64,000 nucleotides of DNA from an uncultured Actinomycetota bacterium (GCA_963825505.1 CAWGTL010000010.1:64080-128079), one strand, 5' to 3'; positions 41,523-60,696 are shown, counted from the stretch's first letter. Notes: a model not told the origin generated them from the sequence alone. Numbers and translations are program-made.

Positions 41523-41551
41523 CCATCGGCAGGGGAGTGGGCCACCTGAGG
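41523..41551 (-). promoter_or_regulatory. Sigma-28 (FliA)-type promoter for flgN-flgK-flgL-fliW
   Basis: Minus strand reads gtCCTCAGGTggcccactcccctGCCGATGGGagg, i.e. TCAG-N15-GCCGATGG. The -10 element ends ~45 nt upstream of the flgN ATG. Confidence 0.6.
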
Positions 41552-41648
41552 ACTTCTCACCGATCAAGGCGCTCCGGCGCGCGACGCCCCCGCGCGGGTT
41601 GCGGGTGAGCGCTCAAGGATCGGATCGATCGGGACGAAGGCTCTGGGC

Positions 41649-42569
41649 GTGACCACCACCAGCACCGGGCCCGTCGCCCGTGACGCCGCGCCGACCGCGC
41701 GCGAGCTGGACGACCTCGTCCGCACCCACCTGCCGGTCGTCGGCTACGTGGTGCACGAGGTCGCCGCCCGGCTCCCCGGGCACGTCGACCGCGACGAGCT
41801 GGTGTCGGCCGGTATGGCCGGCCTGGTCCGCGCGGCACAGGCGTTCGACGCCTCGACCGGCGTCCCCTTCTCGCGGTACGCCAACACCCGGATCCGCGGT
41901 GCGATCCTCGACGAGCTGCGCGGCATGGACTGGAGCAGCAGGGGCGCGCGCCGCCGCTCGCGCGAGCTCGTCGCAGGCGGAGGACTCCCTCACCTCGCGG
42001 CTCGGCCGCGCCGCCACGACGCGAGGAGCTCGCCGCCGAGCTCGAAGGTGGAGGTCGGCGAGCTCGACCGCCGCCGCGCCGAGCGCGAACGTGCCCTGCT
42101 GTCCCTGGACGCCTTCGACGGCGCCGTCGCCGACGTCCTGCCCGCCAGCGCGCCGGACCCCGAGCAGCACGCCCTGGCCGTGGAGCGGATGGGTTACCTG
42201 CGCGCGTCGGTCGACGCCCTGCCGGAGCGGCTGCGCGACGTCGTGGTCGGCGTCTTCCTCGAGCAGCGGCCGATGGCCGAGATCGCCGCCGAGCTCGGCG
42301 TCTCGGAGTCGCGGGTCAGCCAGCTGCGCGCCGAGGCCCTGGTGCTGCTGCGCGACGCGATGAACAGCCAGCTCGCCCCGGAGCGGCTGCCGGCCGCCGG
42401 CGCGCTCGGACCGACGGTCACCCGCCGGCGCGAGGCGCTGTACGCCCAGGTCGCCGCGAACGCCCTCGCCGCCGGCGTCGTCGCGCGCTCGCGCGCCTCC
42501 GACCCGGTGCGGGACCTGGTGCCGGCCCAGCGCCGTCCCGAGCACGACGCCGTCTCCTGGACGGCGTAG
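41649..42569 (+). CDS. fliA: Flagellar sigma factor FliA/WhiG (sigma-28); ORF is open but ~75 nt are read out of frame
   Basis: Region 2 (FSRYANTRIRGAILDELR) and region 4 (MAEIAAELGVSESRVSQLRAEAL) are present. Between 41973 and 42047 the sensible reading QAEDSLTSRLGRAATT / EELAAELE lies in the other two frames. Confidence 0.88.
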   Translation: MTTTSTGPVARDAAPTARELDDLVRTHLPVVGYVVHEVAARLPGHVDRDELVSAGMAGLVRAAQAFDASTGVPFSRYANTRIRGAILDELRGMDWSSRGARRRSRELVAGGGLPHLAARPRRHDARSSPPSSKVEVGELDRRRAERERALLSLDAFDGAVADVLPASAPDPEQHALAVERMGYLRASVDALPERLRDVVVGVFLEQRPMAEIAAELGVSESRVSQLRAEALVLLRDAMNSQLAPERLPAAGALGPTVTRRREALYAQVAANALAAGVVARSRASDPVRDLVPAQRRPEHDAVSWTA

Positions 42570-42590
42570 GAGAAAAGTTCAGAGGCTTTC

Positions 42591-42620
42591 CCTCAGGTCC
42601 GGATCGGCCGGGCCGATGGG
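42591..42620 (+). promoter_or_regulatory. Sigma-28-type promoter for fliC
   Basis: cCCTCAGGTccggatcggccggGCCGATGGGtc, i.e. TCAG (42593-42596), N15, GCCGATGG (42612-42619). Confidence 0.65.
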
Positions 42621-42628
42621 TCGGGTGC

Positions 42629-42644
42629 AGCCCACGGAAGGGCT
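42629..42644 (+). promoter_or_regulatory. fliC leader stem-loop presenting ACGGAA (ANGGAN hexaloop)
   Basis: AGCCC-ACGGAA-GGGCT begins ~10 nt after the -10 element. A second ACGGAGG (42659-42665) forms the Shine-Dalgarno region. Confidence 0.5.
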
Positions 42645-42671
42645 ACGACACAACTCTCACGGAGGAACACC

Positions 42672-43472
42672 ATGTCCATGCGCATCAACACCAACGTCGC
42701 GGCGATGAACGCCTACCGGAACCTGTCGGTCACCGAGGGCGCGATGTCCAAGTCCCTGGAGAAGCTCTCCAGCGGCCTGCGCATCAACCGCGCTGCCGAC
42801 GACGCCGCCGGCCTCGCCATCTCCGAGGGCCTGCGCTCCCAGGTCGGTGGCCTCAAGGTCGCCGTCCGCAACGCCCAGGACGGCATCTCCGTCGCCCAGA
42901 CGGCTGAGGGCGCGCTCACCGAGGTCCACTCGATCCTGCAGCGGGTCCGCGACCTGACGGTCCAGGGGCTCAACGGCTCCAACAGCGCCGAGTCGCTGGC
43001 CGCCATCGACGCCGAGATCGACGCCATGGCCGAGGAGATCGGCGCGATCGGGGCCCGCACCCAGTTCAACGGGGTCGACCTGTTCGGCGACACGCTGACC
43101 TTCCAGGTCGGCGCCAACAGCGGCGACACCCTCGACGTCGACCTGAGCGGCGTGGACCTGGCTGCGCTGCAGACCACCGTCGCCGCTCTCGCGGCCGGCA
43201 CCGCCGACCCGGGCGCCGTCGACACCGAGATCACCGCGATCTCCACCGCCCGCGCCGGCCTGGGTGCTTCGCAGAACCGGCTCGAGCACAACATCAACTC
43301 GCTCAACGTCGCGATCGAGAACCTGTCCGCGTCGGAGAGCCGGATCCGCGACACCGACATGGCCGCGGAGATGGTCAACTTCACCAAGAGCCAGATCCTG
43401 CAGCAGGCCGGCACCGCGATGCTGGCGCAGGCCAACCAGTCCTCGCAGGGCGTGCTCCAGCTCCTGCGCTGA
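42672..43472 (+). CDS. fliC: Flagellin
   Basis: 266-aa ORF reading MRINTNVAAMNAYRNL...GLRINRAADDAAGLAISE...QILQQAGTAMLAQANQSSQGVLQLLR. Confidence 0.95.
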   Translation: MSMRINTNVAAMNAYRNLSVTEGAMSKSLEKLSSGLRINRAADDAAGLAISEGLRSQVGGLKVAVRNAQDGISVAQTAEGALTEVHSILQRVRDLTVQGLNGSNSAESLAAIDAEIDAMAEEIGAIGARTQFNGVDLFGDTLTFQVGANSGDTLDVDLSGVDLAALQTTVAALAAGTADPGAVDTEITAISTARAGLGASQNRLEHNINSLNVAIENLSASESRIRDTDMAAEMVNFTKSQILQQAGTAMLAQANQSSQGVLQLLR

Positions 43473-43483
43473 CCGAGCACGGC

Positions 43484-43514
43484 GCCGGCCCCCGCCCCAC
43501 CAGCGGGGGCCGGC
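43484..43514 (+). terminator. Perfect 12-bp stem-loop after fliC
   Basis: GCCGGCCCCCGC-cccacca-GCGGGGGCCGGC lies 12 nt after the fliC stop. It could attenuate read-through into fliD. Confidence 0.6.
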
Positions 43515-43545
43515 TCCGTGACCCCCACCCCGAGGAGGTGACCCG

Positions 43546-44823
43546 ATGGCCGGGATGCAGGTCAGCGGACTGGTGAGCGGTCTGGACACCGCCACCATCG
43601 TCAACCAGCTGATGCAGCTGGAGGCGGCACCTCAGAACGCCCTCAAGGCCAAGGTCACCCGAGCCGGCAGCCAGGTGACGGCCTACCAGGCCGTCAACAC
43701 CCGGCTCACCGCCGCGCTCGCGGCCGCCGACAAGCTCACGAAGGACGTGACGTGGGGGGCGGCAACCGCCAGCTCCTCCGTCTCGTCCGTCACCGTGACG
43801 AGCGCTCCGGGCGCCGTCACCGGCAGCCTGCGGTTCTCGGTCGACCGGCTGGCCACCGCCCACATGGTGGCCAGCCCGACCGTGGCGGCCGGCGGCTCGG
43901 TCGTCGAGGACGGCCTGACCGAGCTCACCCTCCTCCAGGGCGGGGTGGCCACGACCGTGCCGCTCGAGGGCAACGACCCGGTCTCGGTCGCCAAGGCCAT
44001 CAACGCCTCCGGTGCCGAGGTCCGGGCCGTCGCGCTGCCGGTCGCCAACGGCGTCTACCGCCTCCAGGTCACCTCCCTCGCGACGGGCGAGGCCGGCGCG
44101 TTCTCCGTGCAGGGGCTCACCGTCGACGACGCGGTCACCGTCCAGGGTCAGGACGCCCGGATCCTCGTGGGTGGCACGCTCCCGGTGCAGTCGGCCGACG
44201 GCCGGTTCACCGACGTGCTGCCCGGCACCACCTTCACCGTGGGTGCGGTCGTCGCCGACGTCCAGCTCACGGTGCGCAAGGACGACCTCGCCGTCACCGC
44301 CTCGGTCAAGGCCGTGGTGGACGCCCTCAACGCCGCGCTCAAGGAGATCGGCACGGCGTCGCGGTCCGGCACCGGCGCGCTCTCGGGCGACAGCCTGCTC
44401 AGGTCGCTGACGCAGCAGCTGGTCTCGACCGTCTCCGGTGGCACGACCTCCGCGGTCGCGGCCGGGGTGCAGACCACGCGCACCGGTGAGGTCGCCTTCG
44501 ACACCGAGCGCTTCACCTCGCTCCTGGCGTCCGACCCGACCAGGGCCCGGACCCTGGTGGAGGGCATCGCCTCCCGTGTCGCCGAGGTCGCTCGCGCCGC
44601 GTCGTCCGCGAGCGACGGCACGGTGACCGTCGCCGCGCGGCGCCGCCAGGACAGCATCCGCGGCCTGAACGAGCAGGTGGCCGCCTGGGACACCCGGCTC
44701 GAGATGCGGCGGGCGACCCTGGAGCGGCAGTACTCGGCGCTGGAGACCGCACTGGGCTCCTTGCAGAGCCAGTCCAGCTGGCTCGCCGGACAGCTCGGCG
44801 GCCTGCCGAGCTGGAGCAGCTGA
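43546..44823 (+). CDS. fliD: Flagellar filament cap protein FliD
   Basis: 425-aa ORF. Begins MQVSGLVSGLDTATIVNQLMQLEAAPQ and ends LERQYSALETALGSLQSQSSWL. Confidence 0.9.
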   Translation: MAGMQVSGLVSGLDTATIVNQLMQLEAAPQNALKAKVTRAGSQVTAYQAVNTRLTAALAAADKLTKDVTWGAATASSSVSSVTVTSAPGAVTGSLRFSVDRLATAHMVASPTVAAGGSVVEDGLTELTLLQGGVATTVPLEGNDPVSVAKAINASGAEVRAVALPVANGVYRLQVTSLATGEAGAFSVQGLTVDDAVTVQGQDARILVGGTLPVQSADGRFTDVLPGTTFTVGAVVADVQLTVRKDDLAVTASVKAVVDALNAALKEIGTASRSGTGALSGDSLLRSLTQQLVSTVSGGTTSAVAAGVQTTRTGEVAFDTERFTSLLASDPTRARTLVEGIASRVAEVARAASSASDGTVTVAARRRQDSIRGLNEQVAAWDTRLEMRRATLERQYSALETALGSLQSQSSWLAGQLGGLPSWSS

Positions 44824-44833
44824 CCCGACCCGC

Positions 44834-44906
44834 AGACCGACCCACCGACCTGTAGACAGACCGACAGACCAGACCGACAGACCGACCAGACCGACAGACA
44901 GACCGA
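44834..44906. repeat. Array of the octamer AGACCGAC (6 copies, dense block 44858-44906) in the fliD-fliS spacer
   Basis: Read directly: ...gcAGACCGACcc...gacAGACCGACagaccAGACCGACAGACCGACcAGACCGACagacAGACCGAggaggagga. It ends at the fliS ribosome-binding site. Confidence 0.85.
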
Positions 44907-44920
44907 GGAGGAGGACACCC

Positions 44921-45343
44921 GTGCACGCACCGACCTACACCGCCGCAGCCCGGGCACGGTTCGTCGACGACGCCCTCGCCACGGCGAGCCCCGCCGTCCT
45001 GCTCACCCGGTTGTACGACCGGCTGGTGCTCGACCTGGTGCGCGCGGAGACGGCCCAGCGGGACGGTGCCCGCCTCGCTGCCAGCTCGCAGCTGCTGCAC
45101 GCCCAGGACATCGTCGCCGAGCTGCTCTCCAGCCTGGACACCGCCGCCTGGGCGGGCGGCCCCGGGTTGGCCGCGCTCTACGGGTTCCTGCTCACCGAGC
45201 TGGTCGGCGCGAACGTGACCTGCGACCCGGAGCGCACGGCCTCGTGCCGCGCGCTGGTCGAGCCCCTGCGCGACGCGTGGCACGAGGCGGCCCGCGGCGC
45301 CGTCACCGGCGGCTCGGTCGTCGGCGTCGGCCAGGCGCTCTGA
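44921..45343 (+). CDS. fliS: Flagellin-specific export chaperone FliS
   Basis: 140-aa ORF (LLTRLYDRLVLDL...AQDIVAELLSSLD...LYGFLLTEL) directly downstream of fliD. Confidence 0.8.
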   Translation: MHAPTYTAAARARFVDDALATASPAVLLTRLYDRLVLDLVRAETAQRDGARLAASSQLLHAQDIVAELLSSLDTAAWAGGPGLAALYGFLLTELVGANVTCDPERTASCRALVEPLRDAWHEAARGAVTGGSVVGVGQAL

Positions 45344-45348
45344 GCCCC

Positions 45349-45702
45349 GTGCCGACGACCGTCGCGCCCCCAGCGCCCTGGCAGCGCGAGTGGGAGCTCG
45401 CGCTGGAGTCGCTCGAGCTCGACGTCTCGGCCGCCGAGGACCTGCTCCGCGCGCTGCACGCGCAGACCGACCTGCCGGACGGCGCCGAGGTGATGCGGTC
45501 GCGCTGGACGCCGCCGCCCGGCACCCTCGGCCCGATCCCGCGGCCGCTCGTCGAGCGGGCCCGCACGTTGCTGCAGCGCCAGCACGAGGTGGCCGAGCGG
45601 CTCGTCGTCGCCGCACGGAGCAACCGGGCGCACGCGCGCGTGGCGAACCAGGTCGCCGAGACCGGGTCCAGCGCACCCGTCTACGTCGACGTCGCGCTCT
45701 GA
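45349..45702 (+). CDS. Hypothetical flagellar-locus protein (117 aa)
   Basis: GTG 45349 lies 6 nt after the fliS stop, in frame in ORF 45244..45702. Helical, no family recognised. Confidence 0.55.
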   Translation: MPTTVAPPAPWQREWELALESLELDVSAAEDLLRALHAQTDLPDGAEVMRSRWTPPPGTLGPIPRPLVERARTLLQRQHEVAERLVVAARSNRAHARVANQVAETGSSAPVYVDVAL

Positions 45703-45703
45703 G

Positions 45704-45737
45704 CGGACGGCCGCTGGACCCGGACGGCCGCTGACCC
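45704..45737. repeat. 17-bp tandem duplication CGGACGGCCGCTG(G)ACC x2
   Basis: Read directly after the stop of the 117-aa gene. Confidence 0.7.
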
Positions 45738-45924
45738 GGGTGGGAGCAGCGGCCGGTGCGGGTCGCACCCGGACCGGTGACGGCCGGCCCGGCGCCGACC
45801 GGGTCGTTCACCCGCGCAGCCCCACCGCCGTCGCCGGTGTGGACGTCGTCGCCGCGGTGGGAGGACCCTGGGGGTGCGGGAGGTCCCCTCGTCGGCAGCG
45901 GGACGCGCGGGCGGGAGGTGCGCG

Positions 45925-46835
45925 ATGACCTACTCGCTCGCCAACGCGCCCGCCCTCGCCTACGACCTGGTGCGTCTGCCCGCACGGAGCGCAGGTCCTC
46001 GCCGTGCTGCGCACCGCCCTGGCCTGCGGCAGCGAGGAGCTCGCCGCCCTGGCCGCCCGGCACCCCGGCCCGCACCGCGCCGGACGGTGGGCCGCGGTGC
46101 AGCAGGTGGGTGCCCGCGAGCCGGCCCGGCGCGCGGTCGCGTCCGCCGGCGCCGCGGCCGACCTCGCCCTGGCCGGCGACGTCGCCGGCAGCACCGCGCT
46201 CGTGCGCCGGCTCGAGCGGGCGACGCTCGGCGACGTCGCGGCCCTGGACCGGATGCTGCGCCACGACGTCCTGGACTGGACCTGGCTCGGCGACCGCCGC
46301 CCGGGCGGTCTGGCGGTCCAGGACCCCGAGGCGTCCGAGGCGTGCGACGTGCTGGCCGACGCCGCCGCGTCCGCGTACTGCTCCGAGCGGCTCGACCCGG
46401 CGACGCGGCGGTCGATGGCTGCGCCGTTCCGCGGCGGCGCTGCTCCCCCTGCCCGACCGCACCGGCCACCCCGGCGTCGACCACGCCGTGCGGGTGCTGC
46501 GCGGCCTGGACGCGGACGGTCGCGAACGCTGGCGGCGCGCGGTCGACCACCAGCGGGCCGCGACCACGGCCTGGGCCCCTGCCATGCACGAGGCCACCGG
46601 CGCCCTCGGCGTGGTCGACCGCCTGCACCTGGCGGCCGACGCCCAGCTCGCCGCCGCCGAGGCCTTCCTCGCGGCCGGCTTCAGCACCCAGGACGCCGCC
46701 TACGGCGTCTGGAACGCGGTGAGCGGGAGCATCCAGGCCGTGGTGTCCGGCGACCTGCTGCCCGCTGCCAGCGCGCACGTCCTGCTGCGGTGCTGGCGCC
46801 GCGTCCACGGCTCGGCGCCCGACGACCGGTCCTGA
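45925..46835 (+). pseudogene. Hypothetical flagellar-locus protein (~302 aa), two extra bases (~45990, ~46435)
   Basis: MTYSLANAPALAYDLVRLPARS | QVLAVLRTALACGSEELAAL...MAAPFR | ALLPLPDRTGHPGVDHAVRVL...CWRRVHGSAPDDRS* across three frames, each with high GC3. Span length leaves remainder 2 on division by 3. Confidence 0.5.
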
Positions 46836-46869
46836 CCCGAGCCGGTGGTGAGCACCACCCGACCGGCGT

Positions 46870-46899
46870 CCTCAGGTTCGACCCCGAACGGCCGATGGG
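46870..46899 (+). promoter_or_regulatory. Sigma-28-type promoter upstream of the small ORF / EAL-HDOD unit
   Basis: tCCTCAGGTtcgaccccgaacgGCCGATGGGac, i.e. TCAG 46872-46875, N15, GCCGATGG 46891-46898. Confidence 0.6.
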
Positions 46900-46943
46900 A
46901 CTGGTGCGGGGCGCGTTCCGGCAGGTCCGGCACCGCCACGCGG

Positions 46944-46963
46944 GCGTCGCACGGATGCGGCGC
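46944..46963 (+). promoter_or_regulatory. Leader stem-loop with ACGGAT hexaloop
   Basis: GCGTCGC-ACGGAT-GCGGCGC (7 bp, one G-U pair). A second ACGGACGAGGGG (46973-46984) overlaps the SD of the small ORF. Confidence 0.45.
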
Positions 46964-46988
46964 ACCACCATCACGGACGAGGGGCACC

Positions 46989-47105
46989 ATGCACATCCCG
47001 ATCGCGGGCGAGCGCCGCGGCACCGCCGAGCGCCGGGGCACGGCCGAGAGGTCCCGTGGGCGCCGGGGTACCGTCGAGTCCTCGACACCCGGGGGGACCA
47101 CGTGA
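46989..47105 (+). CDS. Candidate 38-aa Arg/Gly-rich leader peptide, translationally coupled to the EAL-HDOD gene
   Basis: ATG 46989 follows GAGGGG. MHIPIAGERRGTAERRGTAERSRGRRGTVESSTPGGTT. Very high GC3. Its TGA (47103-47105) overlaps GTG 47102 of the next gene (GTGA). Contains an 18-bp tandem repeat (47010-47045). Confidence 0.4.
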   Translation: MHIPIAGERRGTAERRGTAERSRGRRGTVESSTPGGTT

Positions 47106-48406
47106 GCAGCGTCTGGAAGCTGTTGGAGCAGGTGCCCGAGGTGGCGCCCGCCACCCGCATCGCCCGGCAGGGGATCTACGACCGCGACGGCCGGCTCGTC
47201 GCCGGCGAGCTGCTCTTCCGCGGCCACCACGCCGACCAGGCCGGACTCCCCTCCACCTGGGACGCCGTGCACGACGACTCGCTGGCGGCGATCGCCGCCG
47301 AGGCGGCGGCCGACCAGGCCACCTCTCACGTCATCGTCACCACGTTCGGCGACTTCGGCGTCGAGCGGCTCGGTGGCGGACGACCGCTGTTCATCAACGT
47401 GACCCGCTCGTTCCTCGCCGGGGACTACCCGCTGCCGTTCGGGCCCGAGGGCGTCGTGCTCGAGATCCTGGAGAACGTCCAGGTCGACCAGGAGGTGCTG
47501 GACGGCGTCGCGGCGCTGCGCGAGCGCGGCTTCCGGTTCGCGCTCGACGACTACGTCGGCGAGGAGCACCGCGCCCCGCTCGTCGACCTCGTCGACGTCG
47601 TCAAGGTCGACGTCCTCGCCCCGGGCATCGACACCGCGGCGGTGGCCGCCGCCGTCCGGGCCCGCCGGCCCGGCGTCCAGCTGCTGGCCGAGCGGGTCGA
47701 GTCGGCCGAGGTGCTGCGCGCCTGCCACGACGCCGGGTACGAGCTGTTCCAGGGCTTCCACCTCTCGCACCCCGACGTGATGGAGTCGGCCAGCATCTCG
47801 CCGTCCCAGGTGATCTGCATGCGCCTGCTGCAGGCGCTCGGCGACCCGGCGTCGGACGCCGACGACCTCGAGGGGATCGTCGCGGCCGACCCGGGCCTGG
47901 CGGTGCGGGTGCTGCGCACCGCCAACTCGGCCAGCACCGGGAGCCGTCGCGAGATCTCCTCGCTGCGCCAGGCCGTGGTGCTGCTGGGGCCGCGCCCCCT
48001 GCGGTCGTGGGTGCTGCTCACGCTCCTCGGCGGGATGGCCGCCGGACGCCTCGACGACCTGGTGACGGTGCTCGCGCGGGCGGAGGCCTGCGAGGCCGTG
48101 GCCGCCGCCACCGGGGTCGACCCCGCCGCGGCGTACACCACCGGCCTGCTGTCGGGCGTGGCGCAGGTGCTGCGCACCCCGGGCGCCGAGGTCGCGCGCG
48201 ACGCCGGCGTCAGCGACGACGTGCGCCGGGCGCTCGCCGAGGGGGAGGGCCCGCTCGGCGAGGTGCTCCGGGTGGTGCGGGCCCACGAGCTCGGTCTCCC
48301 GGACGCGGCGCAAGGAAGCAGCCTGTCGCCCCTGGTGCTGTCGAGCCTGTGCCTCGAGGCCTGGGCCACCGCGCAGGCCACCGTCACGGCGATGGCCAGG
48401 GGGTAG
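47102..48406 (+). CDS. EAL-domain plus HDOD-domain signalling protein (c-di-GMP related)
   Basis: GTG 47102 is in frame in ORF 46004..48406. EAL-like core (GELLFR, VVLEILENV, RFALDDYV, VKVD, AERVE, ELFQGF) followed by HDOD-like LQALGDPASDADDLEGIVAADPGLAVRVLRTANSA. Confidence 0.8.
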   Translation: MSSVWKLLEQVPEVAPATRIARQGIYDRDGRLVAGELLFRGHHADQAGLPSTWDAVHDDSLAAIAAEAAADQATSHVIVTTFGDFGVERLGGGRPLFINVTRSFLAGDYPLPFGPEGVVLEILENVQVDQEVLDGVAALRERGFRFALDDYVGEEHRAPLVDLVDVVKVDVLAPGIDTAAVAAAVRARRPGVQLLAERVESAEVLRACHDAGYELFQGFHLSHPDVMESASISPSQVICMRLLQALGDPASDADDLEGIVAADPGLAVRVLRTANSASTGSRREISSLRQAVVLLGPRPLRSWVLLTLLGGMAAGRLDDLVTVLARAEACEAVAAATGVDPAAAYTTGLLSGVAQVLRTPGAEVARDAGVSDDVRRALAEGEGPLGEVLRVVRAHELGLPDAAQGSSLSPLVLSSLCLEAWATAQATVTAMARG

Positions 48407-48517
48407 TCCGCCCGGACCACCAGAACCGTTGCGCCGCTGCTCCGTCCGGGCGCACCGGCGGCGCTGTGTGGATCGCCGGCACCGCCCGGACGGCGGGTGA
48501 GTTTCCGCCCTCTCAGC

Positions 48518-48547
48518 GCTCAAGTAGTCCTCCCGTCCACCGATGGA
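48518..48547 (+). promoter_or_regulatory. Sigma-28-type promoter for the flgB...flgE hook-basal-body operon
   Basis: cGCTCAAGTagtcctcccgtccACCGATGGAct, i.e. TCAA 48520-48523, N15, ACCGATGG 48539-48546. Confidence 0.55.
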
Positions 48548-48553
48548 CTACAG

Positions 48554-48589
48554 GAGCGACGGATCGCTCGTGATGGCCACGGACCGGCC
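48554..48589 (+). promoter_or_regulatory. Two adjacent GGA-presenting stem-loops in the flgB leader
   Basis: GAGCGA-CGGA-TCGCTC (48554-48569) and GGCC-ACGGACC-GGCC (48575-48589). Confidence 0.4.
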
Positions 48590-48629
48590 GACTGTCTCTT
48601 CGTCATCAGGACGAGAACGGGGTAGGTCC

Positions 48630-48971: not shown

Positions 48972-48981
48972 GCGGGCGACC

Positions 48982-52922: not shown

Positions 52923-54241
52923 CCGTGAACTTCGCGTCGCGCCTCGAGCTGGCCGAGCGCGCGTGCCGTCCCGAGCGTGTAGGCGTCGTGCGCTCGGCCG
53001 TCGGGCTCTCGCTCGACGTCGCGGGCGTCGAGGCCGCCGTCGGCGACCTCGTCACCGTGTCCGGCCCGGACGGCGACGTGGCGGCCGAGGTCGTGGCGGT
53101 GCAGCCCGACGGCGTCCGCTGCATGCCGCTCGCGCACCCGGTGGGTCTGCGCGCGGGGCTCCCCGTGCGGCTCACCGGCGCCCCGCTGCGGGTGCCGGTC
53201 GGCGGCGCGCTGCTCGGCCGCGTGCTCGACGGACTGGGCCGTCCGGTCGACGGCCGCGGCCCGGTCGTGGGCGCGCAGATGGTCGAGGTGCACGGCACCC
53301 CGCCGAACCCGCTGCTGCGTGGGCGCGTCTCCCAGCCGCTGCCTCTCGGCGTGCGCGCGCTCGACACCCTCGTTCCCGCCGGCCGCGGCCAGCGCTTCGG
53401 GCTGTTCGCCGGCTCCGGCGTCGGCAAGTCGAGCCTGCTGTCGATGGTCGCCCGCGGCACCACCGCCGACGTCGTCGTGCTCGCCCTCATCGGGGAGCGC
53501 GGTCGCGAGGTGCGCGAGTTCCTCGAGGACGACCTGGGGGCCGAGGGCCTGGCCCGCAGCGTCGTCGTGGTCGCCACCTCGGACGAGCCGGCCCTGGTCC
53601 GCCTTCGCGCCGCGATGACCGCCACCCGGATCGCCGAGCACTACCGCGACCAGGGGCTCGACGTCGTGCTGATGATGGACTCGCTCACCCGGTTCTGCAT
53701 GGCGCAGAGGGAGATCGGGCTGTCGGCGGGGGAGCCGCCGGCCACCCGGGGCTACCCACCGTCGACCTTCGCGATGCTCCCGCGCCTGCTCGAGCGCGCG
53801 GGCCCGGGGGTCGTCGGCTCGATCACCGGCATCTACACCGTCCTGGTCGACGGCGACGACCACGACGAACCCGTCGCTGACGCCGCCCGCTCGATCCTCG
53901 ACGGCCACGTCGTCCTGGACCGCAGGCTCGCCACGGCCGGGCACTTCCCGAGCATCGACGTCCTCGGCTCGGTGTCGCGCGTCGCGACCCGCGTCACCAC
54001 CGCCGAGCAGCGCGACGCGGCGACCGTCGTGCGCCGGGCGATGGCGGCGCGTCGCGACGTGCAGGACCTGCTCGACGTCGGGGCGTACGTCACCGGCACC
54101 AACCCGACCGTCGACGCCGCGCTGGCCGCCTGGCCCGCGGTCGAGGACTTCCTGCAGCAGCCGGTGGAGCGCGTCGCAGGCTCCGACGAGTCGTGGGCCC
54201 GGCTGCACCACCTCGCGTCGGTCCTCGGGGGTGCCCGGTGA
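52919..54241 (+). CDS. fliI: Flagellum-specific ATPase FliI
   Basis: Walker A GSGVGKSSL and Walker B VVLMMDSLTRF; 440 aa. Confidence 0.95.
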   Translation: MTVNFASRLELAERACRPERVGVVRSAVGLSLDVAGVEAAVGDLVTVSGPDGDVAAEVVAVQPDGVRCMPLAHPVGLRAGLPVRLTGAPLRVPVGGALLGRVLDGLGRPVDGRGPVVGAQMVEVHGTPPNPLLRGRVSQPLPLGVRALDTLVPAGRGQRFGLFAGSGVGKSSLLSMVARGTTADVVVLALIGERGREVREFLEDDLGAEGLARSVVVVATSDEPALVRLRAAMTATRIAEHYRDQGLDVVLMMDSLTRFCMAQREIGLSAGEPPATRGYPPSTFAMLPRLLERAGPGVVGSITGIYTVLVDGDDHDEPVADAARSILDGHVVLDRRLATAGHFPSIDVLGSVSRVATRVTTAEQRDAATVVRRAMAARRDVQDLLDVGAYVTGTNPTVDAALAAWPAVEDFLQQPVERVAGSDESWARLHHLASVLGGAR

Positions 54242-54666
54242 ACGGGTTCCGGCTCGCCGGCCTGCTCCGGCTGCGCAAGCTGCAGCAGGACCACGCCGCC
54301 GCCGACCTCGCCCGGGCCAACGCCGCGAGCCGGACCGCGGCCGAGCTGGCCGTCCGTCGGCGGGAGGCGCTGGCGGCCCACCGGATGCCGGACGAGACCG
54401 GTGCCCTGGCGTTCACCGCGGCCGCAGCAGCGCGTGCCGCACTCAGCACCGCGGGCATCGAGTCCGCCGAGCACGCTGCGACCGCTGCGCAGGAGGCCGG
54501 CCAGGCCACCGACGCGTGGAACGTGGCCCGCGCCCGGAGTCGCGCCCTGGAGCACCTCGAGGAGCGCTTCGTCGAGGGCGTCGTGCGGGCCGGCCGTGAC
54601 GCGGAGCAACGGCGACTCGACGAGCACAGCAGCCGCAGACCGCGCCCGGGCGGTGAGGCGCCGTGA
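54238..54666 (+). CDS. fliJ: Flagellar export protein FliJ (by position and coiled-coil character)
   Basis: GTG 54238 overlaps the fliI stop. 142-aa helical protein (LRLRKLQQDHAAADLARA...). Confidence 0.6.
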   Translation: MNGFRLAGLLRLRKLQQDHAAADLARANAASRTAAELAVRRREALAAHRMPDETGALAFTAAAAARAALSTAGIESAEHAATAAQEAGQATDAWNVARARSRALEHLEERFVEGVVRAGRDAEQRRLDEHSSRRPRPGGEAP

Positions 54667-55667
54667 ACGGCCTGCTCGCAGTGCAGTCCCGCATCGCCGA
54701 GCTGCAGGGACGGATCGAGCAGCTCAACCCCGCGCGCACGACCAGCGCGACCTCGGTGTCGAGCCTGCAGTTCGCGGGTGCGCTCACTTCGGCGCTCGGC
54801 AGCACGGGCCCCGACGGCGTGGGCTCCACGCCGGGCACGACGGCCTCCGGCGGTGCGACCGGCGAGGCGCTGGTGGAGTCGGCCAGGAAGTACCTCGGCG
54901 TGCCCTACCAGTGGGGAGGCACCGACCCGGCCACGGGCCTGGACTGCTCCGCACTGGTGCAGCGCGCGATGAAGGACCTCGGCGTCGACGTCCCGCGCGT
55001 CGTGGCCGACCAGCGCCATCTGGGCACCGAGGTGCCCAGCCTGGCCCAGGCGCGCCCCGGCGACCTCGTCGTCCTCGGCGGGAGCAGGCACATCGGGATC
55101 TACGTGGGCGACGGCAAGATGCTGCACGCGCCGAAGACCGGTGACGTCGTGCGGATCGGCTCGGTCTACGAGACCCCCACCTCGATCCGGCGGGTGCTCC
55201 CGCAGTCCTCGGCGCCGTCCGTCTCGTCCGCGTCGTGGCCCTCGGCGGCGAGCGTCGCTTCCGGTTCCGGTGCCGGCATCTCCGCGGCGGTGCGGCGCTA
55301 CGAGCCGCTGTTCGCGCAGGCGACGGCCACGTACGGCCTGCCACCGGGCCTGCTCGCGGCGGTCGCCCAGGTGGAGTCGGCCGGCAACCCCTCCGCCGTC
55401 AGCCACGCCGGCGCGCAGGGCCTGATGCAGCTGATGCCCGCCACGGCGAAAGGGCTCGGCGTGAACGCGCTCGACCCGGCGCAGGCGGTGGACGGTGCGG
55501 CCCGGTTGCTGAAGGGCCACCTCGGCTCGTTCGGCTCGCTCGAGCTGGCGCTCGCGGCGTACAACGCCGGCCCGGGTGCGGTGCGCCGCTACGACGGCGT
55601 GCCGCCCTACGCCGAGACGCAGTCGTACGTGCGCAAGGTCGGCGCACTTCTCGGCGGTGTGCGATGA
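54663..55667 (+). CDS. Bifunctional peptidoglycan hydrolase: NlpC/P60 endopeptidase + SLT lytic transglycosylase (FlgJ-like role)
   Basis: YLGVPYQWGGTDPATGLDCSALVQ...HIGIYVGDGKMLHAP (NlpC/P60), then AVAQVESAGNPSAVSHAGAQGLMQLMPATA...AAYNAGPGAV (SLT). Coupled to fliJ and fliK by overlapping stop and start codons. Confidence 0.85.
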   Translation: MNGLLAVQSRIAELQGRIEQLNPARTTSATSVSSLQFAGALTSALGSTGPDGVGSTPGTTASGGATGEALVESARKYLGVPYQWGGTDPATGLDCSALVQRAMKDLGVDVPRVVADQRHLGTEVPSLAQARPGDLVVLGGSRHIGIYVGDGKMLHAPKTGDVVRIGSVYETPTSIRRVLPQSSAPSVSSASWPSAASVASGSGAGISAAVRRYEPLFAQATATYGLPPGLLAAVAQVESAGNPSAVSHAGAQGLMQLMPATAKGLGVNALDPAQAVDGAARLLKGHLGSFGSLELALAAYNAGPGAVRRYDGVPPYAETQSYVRKVGALLGGVR

Positions 55668-56824
55668 GCGTGCCCACGCTGGCCTCTCTGCCCACCTCCG
55701 CGCCCGCACGCGGGACGGCAGCGCCGTCCGGCGCGCGTCGTGACCACTCCGGTCAGGACGCAGGCGTCGCAGGCGATTTCGCTGCCGTGCTCGAGGCAAC
55801 CAGCTCGATCGCCTCCGCCGAGGACGTGACCGTCACCGAGGGGTCGACGGGCGACACCGAGACGACCACCGGGGCCGTGGCTCCCACCGGCGCCGTGCTC
55901 GGCAGCCCGGTCGTGCCGGTCGTCGTGCCGCCGGTGCCCGTGCCGCCGGTGCCCGTGCCGCCGGCGCCCGTGCCGGCCGACGAGGCGCTCGCGTCGTCCG
56001 GCCCCGAGCTCGTGACCCCGGCGCCGGCCACCCTGCCGGACGTGGCCCCGACCCCGGACAGCAGCCCCGCTGCCGCCGAGTTCGTCGCACCAGCTGTGGC
56101 CGCCGGACCCGTTGCCGCGCAGGCCGTCCCGTCCACCGCAACCTCCTCGCCGCCGTCCGAGGAGCGTGCGGCGGGCGGCGCCGCCCCCCAGGACGGGCGG
56201 GGCGCGCAGCCGGGACCAGCCGCGGGCGCGACGCCGTTCCCCGCGCCGGCCCCGGAGGCGACGGCCACCATCGGTGCGTCGACGAGTCTGCCCGAGCCGC
56301 AGCCCGTTTCGCTGCCGGCCCCGACCACCGGTCCCGCTGCTCCAGCCGCCGCAGCCGCCGTGCGCACGCTCGACACCGGCCAGGCTCCGGCTGCCCCGGC
56401 CGTCCCGCACACACCTGTGGTGGTGCCGCTCGCGACGCAGCTGGCACCGCGCGTCAGCAGCCTGCGCGCCCTCGGTGAGGGTGTGCACCGGCTGGTGATG
56501 CGGGTGCAGCCGGAGGAGATCGGTTCGGTCCGCGTTGTCGCCGAGATCACCTCGGACAGAGTGCGGATCGAGCTCCACGGCGGCACCGAGCAGGCCCGGG
56601 AGGCACTCCGAGCGGCCCTGCCCGACCTGCGGCGCGACCTGCTCGGCACGGACCCGCCGGGCACGCGCGCGGAGCTCGACCTGGGCTCCGCCGGGCGCCA
56701 GCCGGGACGCGACCGCGGCCGTCCGGGGACATCCGGCGAGCCACCCGGCCCGGACGGCGTGCCCGCACCGGTGCAGCTCGTGCTGCCGCGCGCGGGCACT
56801 GGGCGTCTGGACGTCGTGACGTGA
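55664..56824 (+). CDS. fliK: Flagellar hook-length control protein FliK
   Basis: ATG 55664 is in frame in ORF 55235..56824. Pro-rich linker; C-terminal LVMRVQPEEIGSVRVVAEITSDRVRIELHGGTEQAREAL. Confidence 0.8.
   Translation: MSVPTLASLPTSAPARGTAAPSGARRDHSGQDAGVAGDFAAVLEATSSIASAEDVTVTEGSTGDTETTTGAVAPTGAVLGSPVVPVVVPPVPVPPVPVPPAPVPADEALASSGPELVTPAPATLPDVAPTPDSSPAAAEFVAPAVAAGPVAAQAVPSTATSSPPSEERAAGGAAPQDGRGAQPGPAAGATPFPAPAPEATATIGASTSLPEPQPVSLPAPTTGPAAPAAAAAVRTLDTGQAPAAPAVPHTPVVVPLATQLAPRVSSLRALGEGVHRLVMRVQPEEIGSVRVVAEITSDRVRIELHGGTEQAREALRAALPDLRRDLLGTDPPGTRAELDLGSAGRQPGRDRGRPGTSGEPPGPDGVPAPVQLVLPRAGTGRLDVVT
55925..55978 (+). repeat. 15-bp tandem repeat GTGCCGCCGGTGCCC x3.6 encoding (VPPVP)n in FliK
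   Basis: Read directly. In-frame coding repeat in the Pro-rich linker. Confidence 0.8.
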
Positions 56825-56930
56825 TGCGTACCAACCGAACTGGTCGCACTTCTGGCTTGAGTCGGAAGGCGTGCGTGCCGACAACACCCCAGGGCGACCG
56901 AGGTGGTCACCCGCGACGAAGGAGGACGGC

Positions 56931-57368
56931 GTGCCGGTCGACGGCGTGATCACAGGCACTCCCATCAGCCAGGTCCTCGGGCAGAACGTGAACGGCACGT
57001 CCGGCCCGAAGAACGAGCTCGACAAGGACGCCTTCCTCAAGCTCCTCGTGGCGCAGCTGCGCTACCAGGACCCCACCGCCCCCATGGACACCTCGGCGTT
57101 CATGGCGCAGACGTCGCAGCTCACGAGCGTGGAGAAGCTCAGCGAGCTGGCCGAGACGACGCGGGCGTCCTTCGACGTCCAGCAACGTCTCGGCGCGGCG
57201 TCCCTCGTCGGCCGCCAGGTCTCCTGGACCGCCGAGGACGGCTCGACCTCCAGCGGCACGGTCTCCGCGGTGACGCTGCTGGGCACCACCCCTCTCCTGC
57301 GCGTCGGTGACACGGATGTCGCCCTCGACAAGGTGACCGCGGTCGTCGCGGGCACCGGCTCCGCCTGA
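56931..57368 (+). CDS. flgD: Flagellar hook assembly/capping protein FlgD
   Basis: GTG 56931 follows GAAGGAGGA. LDKDAFLKLLVAQLRYQDPTAPMD. Confidence 0.9.
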   Translation: MPVDGVITGTPISQVLGQNVNGTSGPKNELDKDAFLKLLVAQLRYQDPTAPMDTSAFMAQTSQLTSVEKLSELAETTRASFDVQQRLGAASLVGRQVSWTAEDGSTSSGTVSAVTLLGTTPLLRVGDTDVALDKVTAVVAGTGSA

Positions 57369-57465
57369 CGACCCTGCCTGACGGCTCAGCCAGACAACCG
57401 ATATCCACCACCACGCACCGGGCGCCCGAGGCGCCGCGAAGACACCCTTCGAGGAGGGACCCCCC

Positions 57466-58647
57466 ATGCTCCGTTCCCTGTTCTCCGGCATCAGCGGGCT
57501 GCGCTCGCACCAGACGATGATGGACGTCACCGGCAACAACATCGCCAACGTCAACACCAACGGCTTCAAGTCGTCCAGCACCCAGTTCCAGGACACCCTC
57601 AGCCAGCTGCTGCGCGCCGCCGGTGCACCGCAGGGCACCACGGCCGGCTCCAACCCCTCGCAGGTCGGGCTCGGCGTGCGGGTCGCGGGCGTCACCACGA
57701 ACTTCGGCCAGGGCTCGGCGCAGCAGACCGGCCGCAGCCTCGACCTGATGATCAACGGCGACGGCTTCTTCGTCACCCAGTCGGTCAACGAGACGCTCTA
57801 CACCCGCGCCGGCGCGCTGACCTTCGACGTCAACGGCACCCTGATCACCAGCGAGGGCTACAAGGTCCAGGGCTGGCAGGCCGACGCCTCGACCGGCGCG
57901 ATCAGCACCACCGGCGGCGTCGGCGACATCAAGCTGCCGATCAGCACGCTGATGCAGCCGCGCTCCACAGGCACCACGACGTTCGAGGGCAACCTGCCCG
58001 CCGACGCCGCGACCGGCACCACGCTCCCGGCCTCGATCGACGTCTACGACGCGCAGGGCACCCGCTCCACGCTGTCGGTGACCTTCCGCAAGGACGACGC
58101 CGACACCTGGTCGGTGCTCGAGGGTGCCACCGTCCTCGGCACGGTCGACTTCACCGGCGGCGGCGGCGCCCACACCACGACCCCGGCCACGCTGACCTCC
58201 GCGTCCGGCATCGACCTGGACCTGTCGACCGTCACCGGCTTCTCCGGCACGACGTCGATCAAGACCAGCGGCCAGGACGGCTACCAGGTCGGCAGCCTCA
58301 CCGCCTTCACCATCGGCCCGGACGGCGTCCTCACCGGCATCTTCAGCAACGGCCTGAAGCAGCCCGTCGCGCAGATCGCCACCGCGACGTTCGCCAACGT
58401 GGCGGGCCTGGAGAAGGCCGGCGGCTCGACCTACCGCACCACGGTCAACTCCGGCTCGGCCCGTGTCGGCGCCCCCGGTCTGGACGACCGCGGCGCCCTC
58501 TCCAGCGGCATGCTCGAGATGTCGAACGTCGACCTCGCCGCCGAGTTCACCAACCTGATCATCGCCCAGCGCGGTTTCCAGGCGAACTCGCGCGTCATCA
58601 CCTCCTCGGACGAGCTGCTCCAGGACCTGGTCAACCTCAAGCGCTGA
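57466..58647 (+). CDS. flgE: Flagellar hook protein FlgE
   Basis: 393-aa ORF reading MLRSLFSGISGLRSHQTMMDVTGNNIANVNTNGFK...LEMSNVDLAAEFTNLIIAQRGFQANSRVITSSDELLQDLVNLKR. Confidence 0.95.
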   Translation: MLRSLFSGISGLRSHQTMMDVTGNNIANVNTNGFKSSSTQFQDTLSQLLRAAGAPQGTTAGSNPSQVGLGVRVAGVTTNFGQGSAQQTGRSLDLMINGDGFFVTQSVNETLYTRAGALTFDVNGTLITSEGYKVQGWQADASTGAISTTGGVGDIKLPISTLMQPRSTGTTTFEGNLPADAATGTTLPASIDVYDAQGTRSTLSVTFRKDDADTWSVLEGATVLGTVDFTGGGGAHTTTPATLTSASGIDLDLSTVTGFSGTTSIKTSGQDGYQVGSLTAFTIGPDGVLTGIFSNGLKQPVAQIATATFANVAGLEKAGGSTYRTTVNSGSARVGAPGLDDRGALSSGMLEMSNVDLAAEFTNLIIAQRGFQANSRVITSSDELLQDLVNLKR

Positions 58648-58656
58648 CGCATCCCC

Positions 58657-59623
58657 TCACGCGGCGCCCGGCGGCCCCGACCCCTGCGGGGGCGGGGCCG
58701 CCGCGCTGCCGGCGGCGCCTCCCGCTGCGGCGCCCGTGCGGCGCAGCACCTCGGCCACCTCGCGCACCGAGGGGGTGCGGCTGCGACGGGTGAGCAGGAA
58801 GACCTCGCGACCCACCGCGGCGGACCGCAGCGGGCGGACCACCACCCCGGGCGGGTCGAACCCGAGGACGAGGTCGGGCAGCAGCGCGCCGGCGCCGGTG
58901 GTGCGGACGAGCTCGAGCTGGATGAGGAAGTCGTCGGAGGTGTACCGCACGTCCGGCTCGAAGCCGCCGATCTCACGGCACGCCCGCACGTGCATGTCGT
59001 GGTGCCCGGTCCCGGGCTGGCTGGTGGTCCACGGCATCTCGGCCAGGCGCGACAGCGGCAGCCGGTCCACCGTCGCCTCCGGGTGGTCGGCGGGCAGCAC
59101 CAGGTCGATGCCCTCGCGCAGGACCGTCTCGCGCTCGAGCTCCGGGTGCAGCACCCGCGGCTGGCCCACGTACTCGTCGCCGACGAGGACGTCGAGCTGG
59201 TGCAGGCGCAGGGCGGGCACGGCCTGCTCGACCTCGGACTCGGTGGCCTCGACCCGGATGCCGGGGTGGGTGCGCGACAGGGTGCGGATCGTCGGCGCCA
59301 CCATCCGCAGGAACGCGGACTGGAAGGCCGCCACCCGCACCGTGCCCGCGAGCCGGCCGGCCGCGACGGCGGCGACCTCCGCCTGCGCCGCGTCCATGCC
59401 CGTCGAGCAGCCCGTCGGCGTGCCGCACCAGCACCGCGCCGGCCTCGGTGAGACGCACACCGCGCCCGACGCGCTCCAGCAGCGCCGTGCCGGCCTCGCG
59501 CTCGAGCGCGGCGAGCTGCTGGGAGATCGCGCTGGGGGTGTACCCGAGAGCGCGCGCGGCGGCGTGCAGCGTCCCGCGGACGTGCACCTCCCGCAGGACG
59601 CGCAGCCGGCGCAGGTCGATCAC
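58657..59623 (-). pseudogene. LysR-family transcriptional regulator, one extra base near 59399
   Basis: HTH MIDLRRLRVLREVHVRGTLHAAARALGYTPSAISQQLAALE...VLVRHADGLLDG (ORF 58973..59623) joins MDAAQAEVAAVAAGRLAGTVRVAAFQSAF... (ORF 58657..59460). Confidence 0.85.
58670..58702. terminator. Strong GC stem-loop after flgE (overlaps the 3' end of the convergent LysR gene)
   Basis: GGCGGCCCCGACCCC-tgc-GGGGGCGGGGCCGCC, a 15-bp stem with one mismatch. Confidence 0.5.
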
Positions 59624-59717
59624 CAGGACGATCCGATCATCCGTTCAGGATATCTGCACGGTTCGGTGAAGCAGGTCGCGCTGGACGTGAACGATCGTCC
59701 GGCCTCACGCTGGCCGG

Positions 59718-60629
59718 GTGGGAGCCCTCGCCTGTGTCGCGTCCGCCGTCGCCTTCGGGCTGCTGGCGGTGTTCGCCAAGCTGGCCTACGGCGAGGGCGT
59801 CGACCTCGACGCCCTGCTGCTCCTGCGCTTCGGTGCCGCCGGGGCGCTGCTGCTGGCCGTCGCGGCCTGCACCGGGCGGCTGCGCGGGCTGCACCCGCGG
59901 GTCGTGGTGGGCGGTCTCGCGATGGGCGCCGTCGGTTACGCCGCCCAGTCCGGGCTCTACCTCGCTGCGCTCGGACGGGTCGAGGCGTCCCAGACGGCGC
60001 TGCTGTTCTGCGGCTACCCGCTCCTGGTGATGGTCGGTGCCGTGCTGACCCGCCGCGAGCCGCCGTCGCGCCGCCGGGGCGCGGCGCTGGTCCTGGCGCT
60101 GCTCGGCGTCGCGCTGGTGCTGGGCGGCGCCTCCGCGGGCGAGGTCGACCTGCTCGGCGCAGCCTGCGCGATCGGGTCCGCCGTGGTCTACACCGGCTAC
60201 ATCCTGGTCGGCGACCGCATCGGCGCGCCCGACCCGCTGGCGTTCGCGGCCCTGGTGTGCGGGGGCGCGGCCTGCACCTTCGGCCTGTGGTCGCTCGTGC
60301 ACGGCGCGCCCGGCCTCGGCTTCGGTGCCGGCGGCTGGCTCTGGCTCGCTCTCATCGCGCTGGTGAGCACCGTCGCGGCGATCGTGCTGTTCTTCGCGGG
60401 GCTGGCGCGCGTGGGCCCGACCGCCGCCGCGCTGCTGTCGACCGTCGAGCCCGTCGTCACCGTCGTCGGTGCGGCGCTGGTCTTCGGCGAGGTGCTCACG
60501 CTCCAGCAGGCGGTCGGCGGCGTGCTCGTCCTCGGCACCGTCCTGCTCGTGCAGTGGCCGGCGCGACGCCGGCTGCCGGCGGCGGCCCCGGCTCCGCCTG
60601 TGCCGGAACGGGTCCCAGCGGGTCGCTGA
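59718..60629 (+). CDS. EamA/DMT-family transporter
   Basis: 303-aa protein with ~10 TM segments. Divergent from the LysR gene. Confidence 0.8.
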   Translation: MGALACVASAVAFGLLAVFAKLAYGEGVDLDALLLLRFGAAGALLLAVAACTGRLRGLHPRVVVGGLAMGAVGYAAQSGLYLAALGRVEASQTALLFCGYPLLVMVGAVLTRREPPSRRRGAALVLALLGVALVLGGASAGEVDLLGAACAIGSAVVYTGYILVGDRIGAPDPLAFAALVCGGAACTFGLWSLVHGAPGLGFGAGGWLWLALIALVSTVAAIVLFFAGLARVGPTAAALLSTVEPVVTVVGAALVFGEVLTLQQAVGGVLVLGTVLLVQWPARRRLPAAAPAPPVPERVPAGR

Positions 60630-60666
60630 GGCGACGGCCCGCGCAGGCAGCTGCGCGTGCCGAACT

Positions 60667-60696
60667 CCTCAGGTGGTCGGGGTCCCGGCCGATGGG
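60667..60696 (+). promoter_or_regulatory. Sigma-28-type promoter for flbD-motA-motB-fliL
   Basis: tCCTCAGGTggtcggggtcccgGCCGATGGGag, i.e. TCAG 60669-60672, N15, GCCGATGG 60688-60695. Confidence 0.62.

Follow-up and report, generated by a model that had tools for sequence, protein, structure and literature searches.

In Actinoplanes missouriensis the flagellar genes form 11 transcription units, and FliA1/FliA2 promoters control all of them (PMC13083903, a summary of Jang 2016 and Hashiguchi 2020). For the actinobacterial WhiG sigma factors a consensus of -35 xT(C/A)Ax and -10 GCCGA has been given, the WhiG1 sigmas have been tied to flagellar clusters with several predicted sites per cluster in Actinoplanes, Cellulomonas and Geodermatophilus, and genes for diguanylate cyclases and phosphodiesterases (DGC/PDE) were the most widespread predicted WhiG targets, with self-targeting in some species and FlgM absent (Denis et al., mSystems 2026, PMC13595943). 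In Rubrobacter radiotolerans, WhiG promoters of the TAAA/GCCGATAA type were validated by 5'-end capture, five of them before DGC/PDE genes (PMC8325347). Here we describe a flagellar locus within a 64,000-nt stretch of DNA (hereafter the window) from an uncultured Actinomycetota bacterium (GCA_963825505.1 CAWGTL010000010.1:64080-128079), the units of which are preceded by exact or degenerate copies of the bipartite element CCTCAGGT-N13-GCCGATGGG. The element is very probably a promoter read by RNA polymerase with the FliA/WhiG-family (sigma-28) factor that 41649-42569 encodes, a reading that we hold with high confidence for four perfect sites, with moderate confidence for the sites before flgB and fliM and with lower confidence for a site before fliA.

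The window resembles A. missouriensis in that its flagellar cluster is split into many units with FliA-type promoters and in that early and late genes appear to be under common sigma-28-type control. Unlike the window, which shows one sigma gene and is known from sequence alone, Actinoplanes possesses several FliA paralogues as well as the activator TcrA, and it forms sporangia in its life cycle. As in the WhiG1 group (PMC13595943) the sigma gene is located inside the flagellar cluster, here between flgN and fliC, although that survey differs from the present analysis in having covered other lineages, in having required GCCGA at most 200 bp from the start codon and in not describing leaderless fliM and fliA starts or leader RNA elements. 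The Rubrobacter WhiG regulon is one of type IV pili gated by RsiG and cyclic di-GMP (c-di-GMP), whereas that of the window is a flagellar locus.

A layout in which one sigma factor serves all flagellar operons is already documented in other flagellated actinobacteria. The sequence-only reading of this DNA had proposed that early and late genes share one sigma factor, unlike the enteric cascade; the sharing is supported here, while the contrast with known systems was overstated (A. missouriensis, PMC13083903; PMC13595943). It had also placed a c-di-GMP-type gene in the regulon, and this gene does have a perfect promoter copy but is no departure from what has been described, as DGC/PDE targets are known (PMC13595943, PMC8325347). 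The described pattern is thereby extended to an uncultured soil lineage with an unusually clean promoter set of four identical copies.

The exact pattern occurred four times in the window compared with 0.01 matches expected from dinucleotide-preserving shuffles (n=100), none of which reached four copies. The half-sites alone were found at about chance frequency in the window, with 12 occurrences of RCCGATGG against 7.1 expected and eight of CTCARGT against 8.7 expected, and the exceptional feature is the pairing of the half-sites at a fixed spacing and only that. Seven RCCGATGG octamers were unpaired (at 1694, 8060, 20791, 42269, 49812, 56268 and 58310), rather than the three counted in the sequence-only reading. 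All copies of the element were intergenic and oriented toward the next gene, and at the five sites formed by the perfect copies and the flgB copy a stretch of 43-89 nt separated the -10 box from the first start codon. The flgB copy agreed with the exact pattern at 13 of the 17 specified bases and was missed when up to three mismatches were allowed, because four of the 17 specified positions differ, and was recovered with the core TCA[AG]G[TG]-N12-14-[AG]CCGAT[GA][GA]. The description of five near-identical promoters was therefore accurate for four identical copies, the flgB copy being degenerate. An ATG at 48543 listed as the start of an open reading frame (ORF) falls within this -10 box, and flgB in fact begins at a conserved GTG (48630).

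Two matrices built from relatives only were applied to the window. With a fixed-spacing matrix, derived from 23 orthologous sites with the window and its 97% relative L001 left out, five of the six best-scoring of 128,000 positions were the window sites (21.2, 17.6, 17.0, 16.5 and 13.7 bits), and at a threshold of at least 15 bits there were 0.37 hits in shuffled sequence against the four observed. A spacing-flexible two-block matrix gave the four perfect sites 23-24.4 bits and the flgB site 15.9 bits, and no further good site was found with it in positions 1-38000. Two other matrix hits were taken as chance matches, a 16.2-bit hit at 38231-38261 which lies inside the converging coding regions of MeaB and fliW, and a hit at 61526-61492 which is antisense in motA. 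The sequence-only reading had seen no element before flgD and flgE, and this was borne out with a loose pattern (given below) in the window and 11 relatives, where neither gene was preceded by a sigma-28 box (0/12 loci for each). A near-motif before flgE, CTCAG-N7-ACCGATAT, was rejected as its spacing is wrong and it is not conserved.

Related loci were retrieved by a FliF search, which gave 15 loci (L001-L015) with FliF identities of 97, 84, 71 and 67% in uncultured Actinomycetota metagenome-assembled genomes (MAGs) and of about 45-55% in Micrococcales, Cellulomonas and Conyzicola, and gene order was kept among them. The host of the window is an uncultured soil actinobacterium with affinity to the Micrococcales/Cellulomonas group, and the guanine plus cytosine (GC) content of the window is 73.8%. 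Orthologous sites were identified with the loose pattern T[CA]A-N14-19-[GAC]CCGA[TA], which matched 5% of random 323-nt segments. The boxes persisted in up to 24 related loci while the spacers diverged freely, and the loci with conserved boxes spanned FliF identities from 97% down to about 45% (Table 1).

The -10 element GCCGATGG agreed with GCCGATAA at six of eight positions and the -35 element TCAGGT with TAAAGT at four of six. The T of the -35 box and the G of the -10 box were 19 nt apart in all five sites, equal to TAAA-N15-GCCGATAA, and the enteric FliA promoter TAAAGTTT-N11-GCCGATAA has the same 19-nt register; the spacing was 1 nt longer in the fliA, fliM and L001 flgB sites. The GCCGAT core was invariant in the four strong window sites and dominant in the 23 orthologous sites, and the -35 box fits the actinobacterial xT(C/A)Ax consensus (PMC13595943), its T and A being the most informative matrix columns. 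Orthologous sites in Conyzicola nivalis (69% GC) read CTAAC...GCCGATAG, a form that links them to the canonical TAAA/GCCGATAA, and the flgB orthologous sites included GCCGATGG/GCCGATAG versions (L005, L006, L009 and L015). On this evidence (C)CTCAGGT would be a GC-rich version of the sigma-28 -35 TAAAGT, and GCCGATGG(G) would correspond to the -10 GCCGATAA in the canonical register.

The sole sigma gene seen in the flagellar locus and the window encodes a FliA/WhiG-like protein. Its best Protein Data Bank (PDB) matches were WhiG and FliA (E 2e-25 to 5e-20), and matches to the remaining sigma families reached 5e-7 or worse. The best NCBIfam model was TIGR02479 FliA_WhiG, with 136.8 bits for the window protein and 168.9 bits for the intact L001 copy relative to a curated cutoff of 189.6, and the protein is assigned to the FliA/WhiG family on its best match and gene context. 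Residues ~107-133 (window 41960-42050) were out of frame in comparison with L001 and L059, with three local shifts after which the frame was restored, and L057 has a different local shift. Because L059, a 99.4% identical contig from another sample, has an intact fliA, the frameshift is probably an assembly error, most likely noise of long-read metagenome assembly. The sigma-28 promoter interpretation made in the sequence-only reading is supported by orthologous conservation, by recovery of the window sites with the relatives-only matrix and by this adjacent FliA/WhiG-like gene, and its gene identities for flgN, the sigma-70 region 2/region 4 protein, fliC, EAL+HDOD, flgB and FlbD were borne out by Pfam.

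A sixth candidate site, outside the range that the sequence-only reading covered, was located before fliM, the start of which (63476) was taken over from the gene call of a 99.87% identical contig (L016), and the fliM GTG is 7 nt after the -10 box. A CTCA...GCCGAT box with a GTG 7-9 nt beyond it was present before fliM in ten other lineages; orthologous CTCA-N-GCCGAT boxes were found in L017, L022, L023, L025, L034, L040, L046, L047 and L048, and GCCGATGG occurred before fliM in L022, L025 and L048.

Upstream of fliA there was no good match to the element, as had been claimed from the sequence, but there was a conserved degenerate one. This consisted of CTCAAGGA, 13 nt, GACGA(A/C)G, 8-9 nt and the GTG, of which CTCAAGGA, GACGA and the GTG were invariant in the window and L001-L004, and in L005, L006 and L015 the region read CTCAAGT/TCAAGA...CCCGAA/GCCGAC with the GTG 7-8 nt further on. 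As its matrix score was below 10 bits, the fliA element is argued for by conservation only. A GAAGG before fliA was rejected as a Shine-Dalgarno (SD) sequence because L002-L004 keep GACGA and lose the GG. A GC-rich insertion of ~32 nt (41565-41605), located in the interval from the flgN promoter to the fliA upstream element, is present in the window and L001 relative to L002-L004.

Since the GTG of fliM and fliA is 7-8 nt past the -10 box, transcription of these genes probably starts at the start codon and gives leaderless mRNAs. For fliM this suggests a leaderless mRNA, and the fixed box-to-GTG distance can be taken as an in-silico indication of the transcription start. For fliA the element suggests weak positive autoregulation, in which the sigma factor would be produced from a leaderless mRNA transcribed with its own product.

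The three degenerate sites before flgB, fliM and fliA share GCTCAA as the -35, and the four perfect sites share CCTCAGGT, which hints at two promoter strength classes; this distinction breaks down in distant relatives. The four perfect copies would drive late or peripheral units, namely flgN-flgK-flgL-fliW, fliC-fliD-fliS with two ORFs, the small ORF with the EAL-HDOD gene of c-di-GMP type, and flbD-motA-motB-fliL. The degenerate GCTCAA copies would serve flgB (with rod, MS ring, export ATPase and hook), fliM and probably fliA. How far these sites depend on the sigma factor, where transcription starts, how strong the promoters are relative to one another and how far the operons extend are all inferred here from sequence features.

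Several observations weigh against this interpretation. Scores as high as those of the flgB, fliM and fliA sites also occur in shuffled sequence, so that the weak flgB site is argued for by its position and conservation; the sigma protein is below the NCBIfam FliA_WhiG cutoff even in the intact L001 copy, the window fliA is internally out of frame, and the EAL promoter is confined to the closest relatives. In addition, if all units including the sigma gene need that sigma the system has no self-start, and another promoter or activator must exist; a sigma-28-independent entry promoter was looked for in the sigma-70 scans of 38000-50000 and 54000-64000 and none was detected, although the scan suits high-GC actinobacteria poorly.

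It is possible in principle, and in our judgement unlikely, that only the four perfect copies work, that the flgB, fliM and fliA look-alikes are non-functional or minor, and that the early genes and fliA are mainly transcribed from a housekeeping-sigma or activator promoter in a conventional early/late hierarchy. Such an arrangement would account for the scores of these three sites, which at 12-16 bits or less are within reach of shuffles, and for the sigma-28-independent entry point that a cascade requires, and it is favored by decay of the flgB -10 to AACCGAAC in L003 and by the four of 13 loci without a regular-expression match before flgB. However, the degenerate sites are at conserved positions in many lineages, the good boxes of relatives before flgB and fliM noted above are of the GCCGATGG or GCCGATAG form, no sigma-70-like promoter was detected within the limits of the scan, and the early units of A. 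missouriensis are also under FliA-type promoters (PMC13083903).

A different sigma factor reading the element, or a role for it as the shared operator of a flagellar transcription factor, is very improbable. The -35 CCTCAGG is a partial palindrome (CCTNAGG) that exceeds a minimal TAAA in both length and invariance, yet the matrix information profile showed that the core invariant across lineages is T.A...GCCGAT at the sigma-28 register and not the palindrome, the lower-GC relatives converge on the canonical consensus, the element always points at the downstream gene, and the only sigma gene of the locus is FliA/WhiG-like. A dispersed mobile or repetitive extragenic palindromic (REP)-like repeat, or chance, which four identical 8-nt and 9-nt blocks inside 20 kb might bring to mind, can be given almost no credence, the repeat being rejected because the copies share boxes only, with unrelated spacers and flanks, the chance expectation being 0.01 matches, and all copies being intergenic, gene-directed and at orthologous positions in distant relatives.

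Table 1. Predicted promoters, gene units and leader hairpins of the flagellar locus, with positions counted from the first letter of the window and distances (nt) measured from the end of the -10 box to the start codon
Feature	Position	Strand	Distance to start	Basis and remarks
Predicted sigma-28-type promoter, flgN-flgK-flgL-fliW	41522-41551	minus	43 (flgN)	exact match; 24.4 bits, two-block matrix; orthologous site in 10/10 loci (loose pattern)
Predicted sigma-28-type promoter, fliC-fliD-fliS-unk1-unk2	42591-42620	plus	51 (fliC)	exact match; 23.0 bits, two-block matrix; orthologous site in 10/12 loci by loose pattern, TCCGAT versions by eye in the other two, so visible in 12/12
Predicted sigma-28-type promoter, 38-codon ORF and EAL-HDOD gene	46870-46899	plus	89 (small-ORF ATG 46989); 202 (EAL-HDOD GTG 47102)	exact match; kept only in L001, L057 and L059
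Predicted degenerate sigma-28-type promoter, flgB	48518-48547	plus	82 (conserved GTG 48630)	GCTCAAGT-N13-ACCGATGGA; 13.7-15.9 bits; orthologs in L001-L006, L009 and L015; 9/13 loci (loose pattern)
Predicted sigma-28-type promoter, flbD-motA-motB-fliL	60667-60696	plus	52 (flbD)	exact match; ortholog in 11/12 genome loci (loose pattern) and most metagenome loci
Candidate promoter, fliM	63439-63469	plus		GCTCAAC-N14-TCCGATAGA; 12.4 bits; followed by 6 nt (CCCGGG), then GTG 63476
Candidate weak promoter, fliA	41611-41640	plus		GCTCAAGGA-N13-GACGAAGG; followed by 8 nt, then GTG 41649; conservation only
flgN unit	38247-41478	minus		flgN 40978-41478, flgK 39586-40908, flgL-like 38660-39583, fliW 38247-38663
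fliA, putative FliA/WhiG-family sigma factor	41649-42569	plus		Pfam Sigma70_r2/r4; between flgN and fliC
fliC unit	42672-46835	plus		fliC, fliD, fliS, two unknown-family ORFs (45390-45734, 45756-46835); Pfam
Small ORF and EAL-HDOD gene	46989-48406	plus		small ORF 46989-47105; EAL-HDOD 47102-48406
flgB unit	48630-58647	plus		flgB-flgC-fliE-fliF-fliG-fliH-fliI-fliJ-(NlpC/P60+SLT hydrolase)-fliK-flgD-flgE; Pfam
LysR gene and EamA transporter gene	58657-60629			LysR gene on minus strand, split between two frames, likewise in L016
flbD unit	60749-63290	plus		flbD, motA, motB, fliL; Pfam FlbD, MotA_ExbB, MotB_plug/OmpA, FliL; L016 gene calls
fliC leader hairpin	42626-42648	plus		CCCACGGAAGGG, ACGGAA loop; conserved in 12 loci; minimum free energy (MFE) fold
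EAL leader hairpin	46943-46981	plus		CGCACGGATGCG, CGGA loop; MFE fold; identical in L001
flgB leader, two hairpins	48554-48593	plus		GAGCGACGGATCGCTC and GGCCACGGACCGGCC, ACGGA loops; fold z-score -2.9
flbD leader hairpin	60703-60725	plus		GCCCACGGACGGGC, ACGGAC loop; second GGA at SD, CCAAGGACGG

In enteric bacteria the flgB and fliF operons are class 2, under FlhDC and sigma-70, and FlgM gates sigma-28. The sites of the window are like the enteric class 3 FliA promoters in having the same two boxes and register and in their flagellin, stator, chaperone and hook-associated targets, and E. coli pdeH (yhjH), which encodes an EAL phosphodiesterase, is a FliA-dependent class 3 gene. Unlike the enteric three-tier cascade, which has no early sigma-28 promoters and has FlgM with flgN, the locus has sigma-28-type boxes upstream of flgB and fliM, and flgM was not detected beside flgN. 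In Bacillus subtilis a weak sigma-D promoter (PD-3) is located before flgB beside the main promoter, sigD is autoregulated, and the gene order flgB...flgE-flbD(swrD)-fliL-fliM is as in the window. Unlike in B. subtilis, the genes of the long operon are divided here among units with promoters of their own, and the sigma-28 gene is separate, between flgN and fliC.

In the B. subtilis hag leader one CsrA site is held in a hairpin and another covers the SD, and the same two-site layout was found before fliC in the window, where fliW is present. On four leaders (fliC, flbD, flgB and EAL) the transcripts would open, directly after the -10 boxes, with small conserved hairpins that have a GGA loop, (A/C)(C/U)GGA, those on the flgB, flbD and EAL leaders being a difference from B. 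subtilis. A second GGA overlaps the SD of fliC (CACGGAGGA, 42656-42664), of flbD and of the small ORF, the ATG of which is preceded by TCACGGACGAGG in the EAL leader. In the flgB leader the ACGGAT and GGCCA.GGA blocks were invariant in nine loci and there was no GGA at the SD. The CsrA-type layout of a GGA loop with a GGA over the SD therefore fits the fliC, flbD and EAL small-ORF leaders, and flgB has the loops only. This layout resembles that of CsrA sites, and CsrA may, by analogy, bind these leaders.

Among 18 distinct sequences of the flbD hairpin, 88% of cells were paired, four of six pairs had compensatory changes and the GGA was invariant; none of 500 shuffles was as good and slid controls were not close. 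A covariance model (R1) built from the flbD hairpins and scanned over the window returned the fliC hairpin as hit 2 (21 bits, E 0.018), the EAL leader as hit 6 and the flgB leader as hit 7. The plus strand of the window contained 17 copies of CACGGA, six of them within ~440 nt of leader sequence. No known RNA family was recognised in the leaders when 38000-64000 was compared with Rfam. A strong hairpin of a different kind, with no GGA in the loop, is present in the flgN leader (GGTCACACCCCGTGACC, 41471-41513, minus strand, fold z-score -2.7) and was kept in L001 and L003.

A tblastn search with B. subtilis and E. coli CsrA queries found no csrA in the window or L001-L015. The window ends in fliM and contig L016 ends just after flhB, the csrA-equivalent region being beyond the window. 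In L017, the FlhB of which is 88% identical, csrA (Pfam CsrA, 88 bits) was located ~1.8 kb beyond flhA, at the far end of the flagellar locus (15150-15410), and csrA also followed flhA in nine other loci (L021, L025, L026, L032-L035, L037 and L056), in agreement with csrA at the flagellar locus of Kineococcus and other actinobacteria (PMC2587704). Similarly, a tblastn search of the window and L001-L015 with B. subtilis FlgM, a weak test for a divergent small protein, found no flgM, and flgN was the first gene after its own promoter with no flgM beside it.

We tentatively suggest, as a possibility short of an even chance, that this is a FlgM-less lineage in which one WhiG1-type sigma-28 drives every flagellar unit through seven promoters of two strength classes, together with a CsrA-FliW checkpoint on at least four transcripts with GGA hairpins. 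CsrA-FliW would then supply the missing assembly checkpoint after transcription, and the putative CsrA targets would be flagellin, the flgB rod/export/hook operon, the flbD-motAB stator operon and the EAL-HDOD c-di-GMP gene. If true, the flagellar CsrA regulon would be much broader than in B. subtilis, where hag is the one known target. The replacement of FlgM in actinobacterial flagellar control, a question left open in the 2026 survey, thus gains leads in the self-promoted and probably leaderless sigma gene, the two apparent strength classes, and the CsrA-type hairpins with fliW in the locus and csrA in relatives.

Gene calls were based on Pfam and NCBIfam scans. In the flgN unit Pfam identified FlgN, FlgK_D1 and FliW, and FlgL was assigned by a weak NCBIfam match. 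The two ORFs after fliS (45390-45734, 114 aa, and 45756-46835, 359 aa) had no Pfam, NCBIfam or PDB sequence match, and as FlgM and FliT are missing they are candidates for a chaperone or regulator. An ORF of ~115 aa is also located after fliS in L002 and L003, in both of which the 359-aa ORF is absent.

The EAL-HDOD protein was identified by Pfam (EAL 46.1 bits, HDOD 73.5 bits). The small ORF before it has 38 codons, is arginine/glycine-rich and has a stop that overlaps the EAL-HDOD GTG (GTGA); it was predicted as a gene in L058 (32 aa) and L059 (38 aa) and may serve for coupling or for regulation as an upstream ORF. L002-L004 have the EAL-HDOD gene next after the ORF adjacent to fliS, and there it has no box of its own. 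In the Cellulomonas MAG L015 an EAL-like gene right after fliW (607-543, minus strand) has its own CTCAGGT-N13-GCCGATGG box (607-581), so the combination of an EAL gene and a sigma-28-type promoter recurs at another place in the locus.

From flgB to fliK start and stop codons abut or overlap. The 106-nt and 97-nt gaps before flgD and flgE had no sigma-28 box in any locus and no terminator-like site, and flgB through flgE is probably one unit of ~10 kb. The terminator scan of 38000-50000 and 54000-64000 gave matches at chance level only. Downstream of flgE the LysR-EamA pair is an insertion upstream of the ancestral flbD promoter, as L002 and L004 are without it and have flgE followed directly by the promoter and flbD. 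Between fliJ and fliK is a fused NlpC/P60 and SLT lytic transglycosylase gene (54663-55667), the product of which presumably opens the peptidoglycan for the assembling rod, as FlgJ would.

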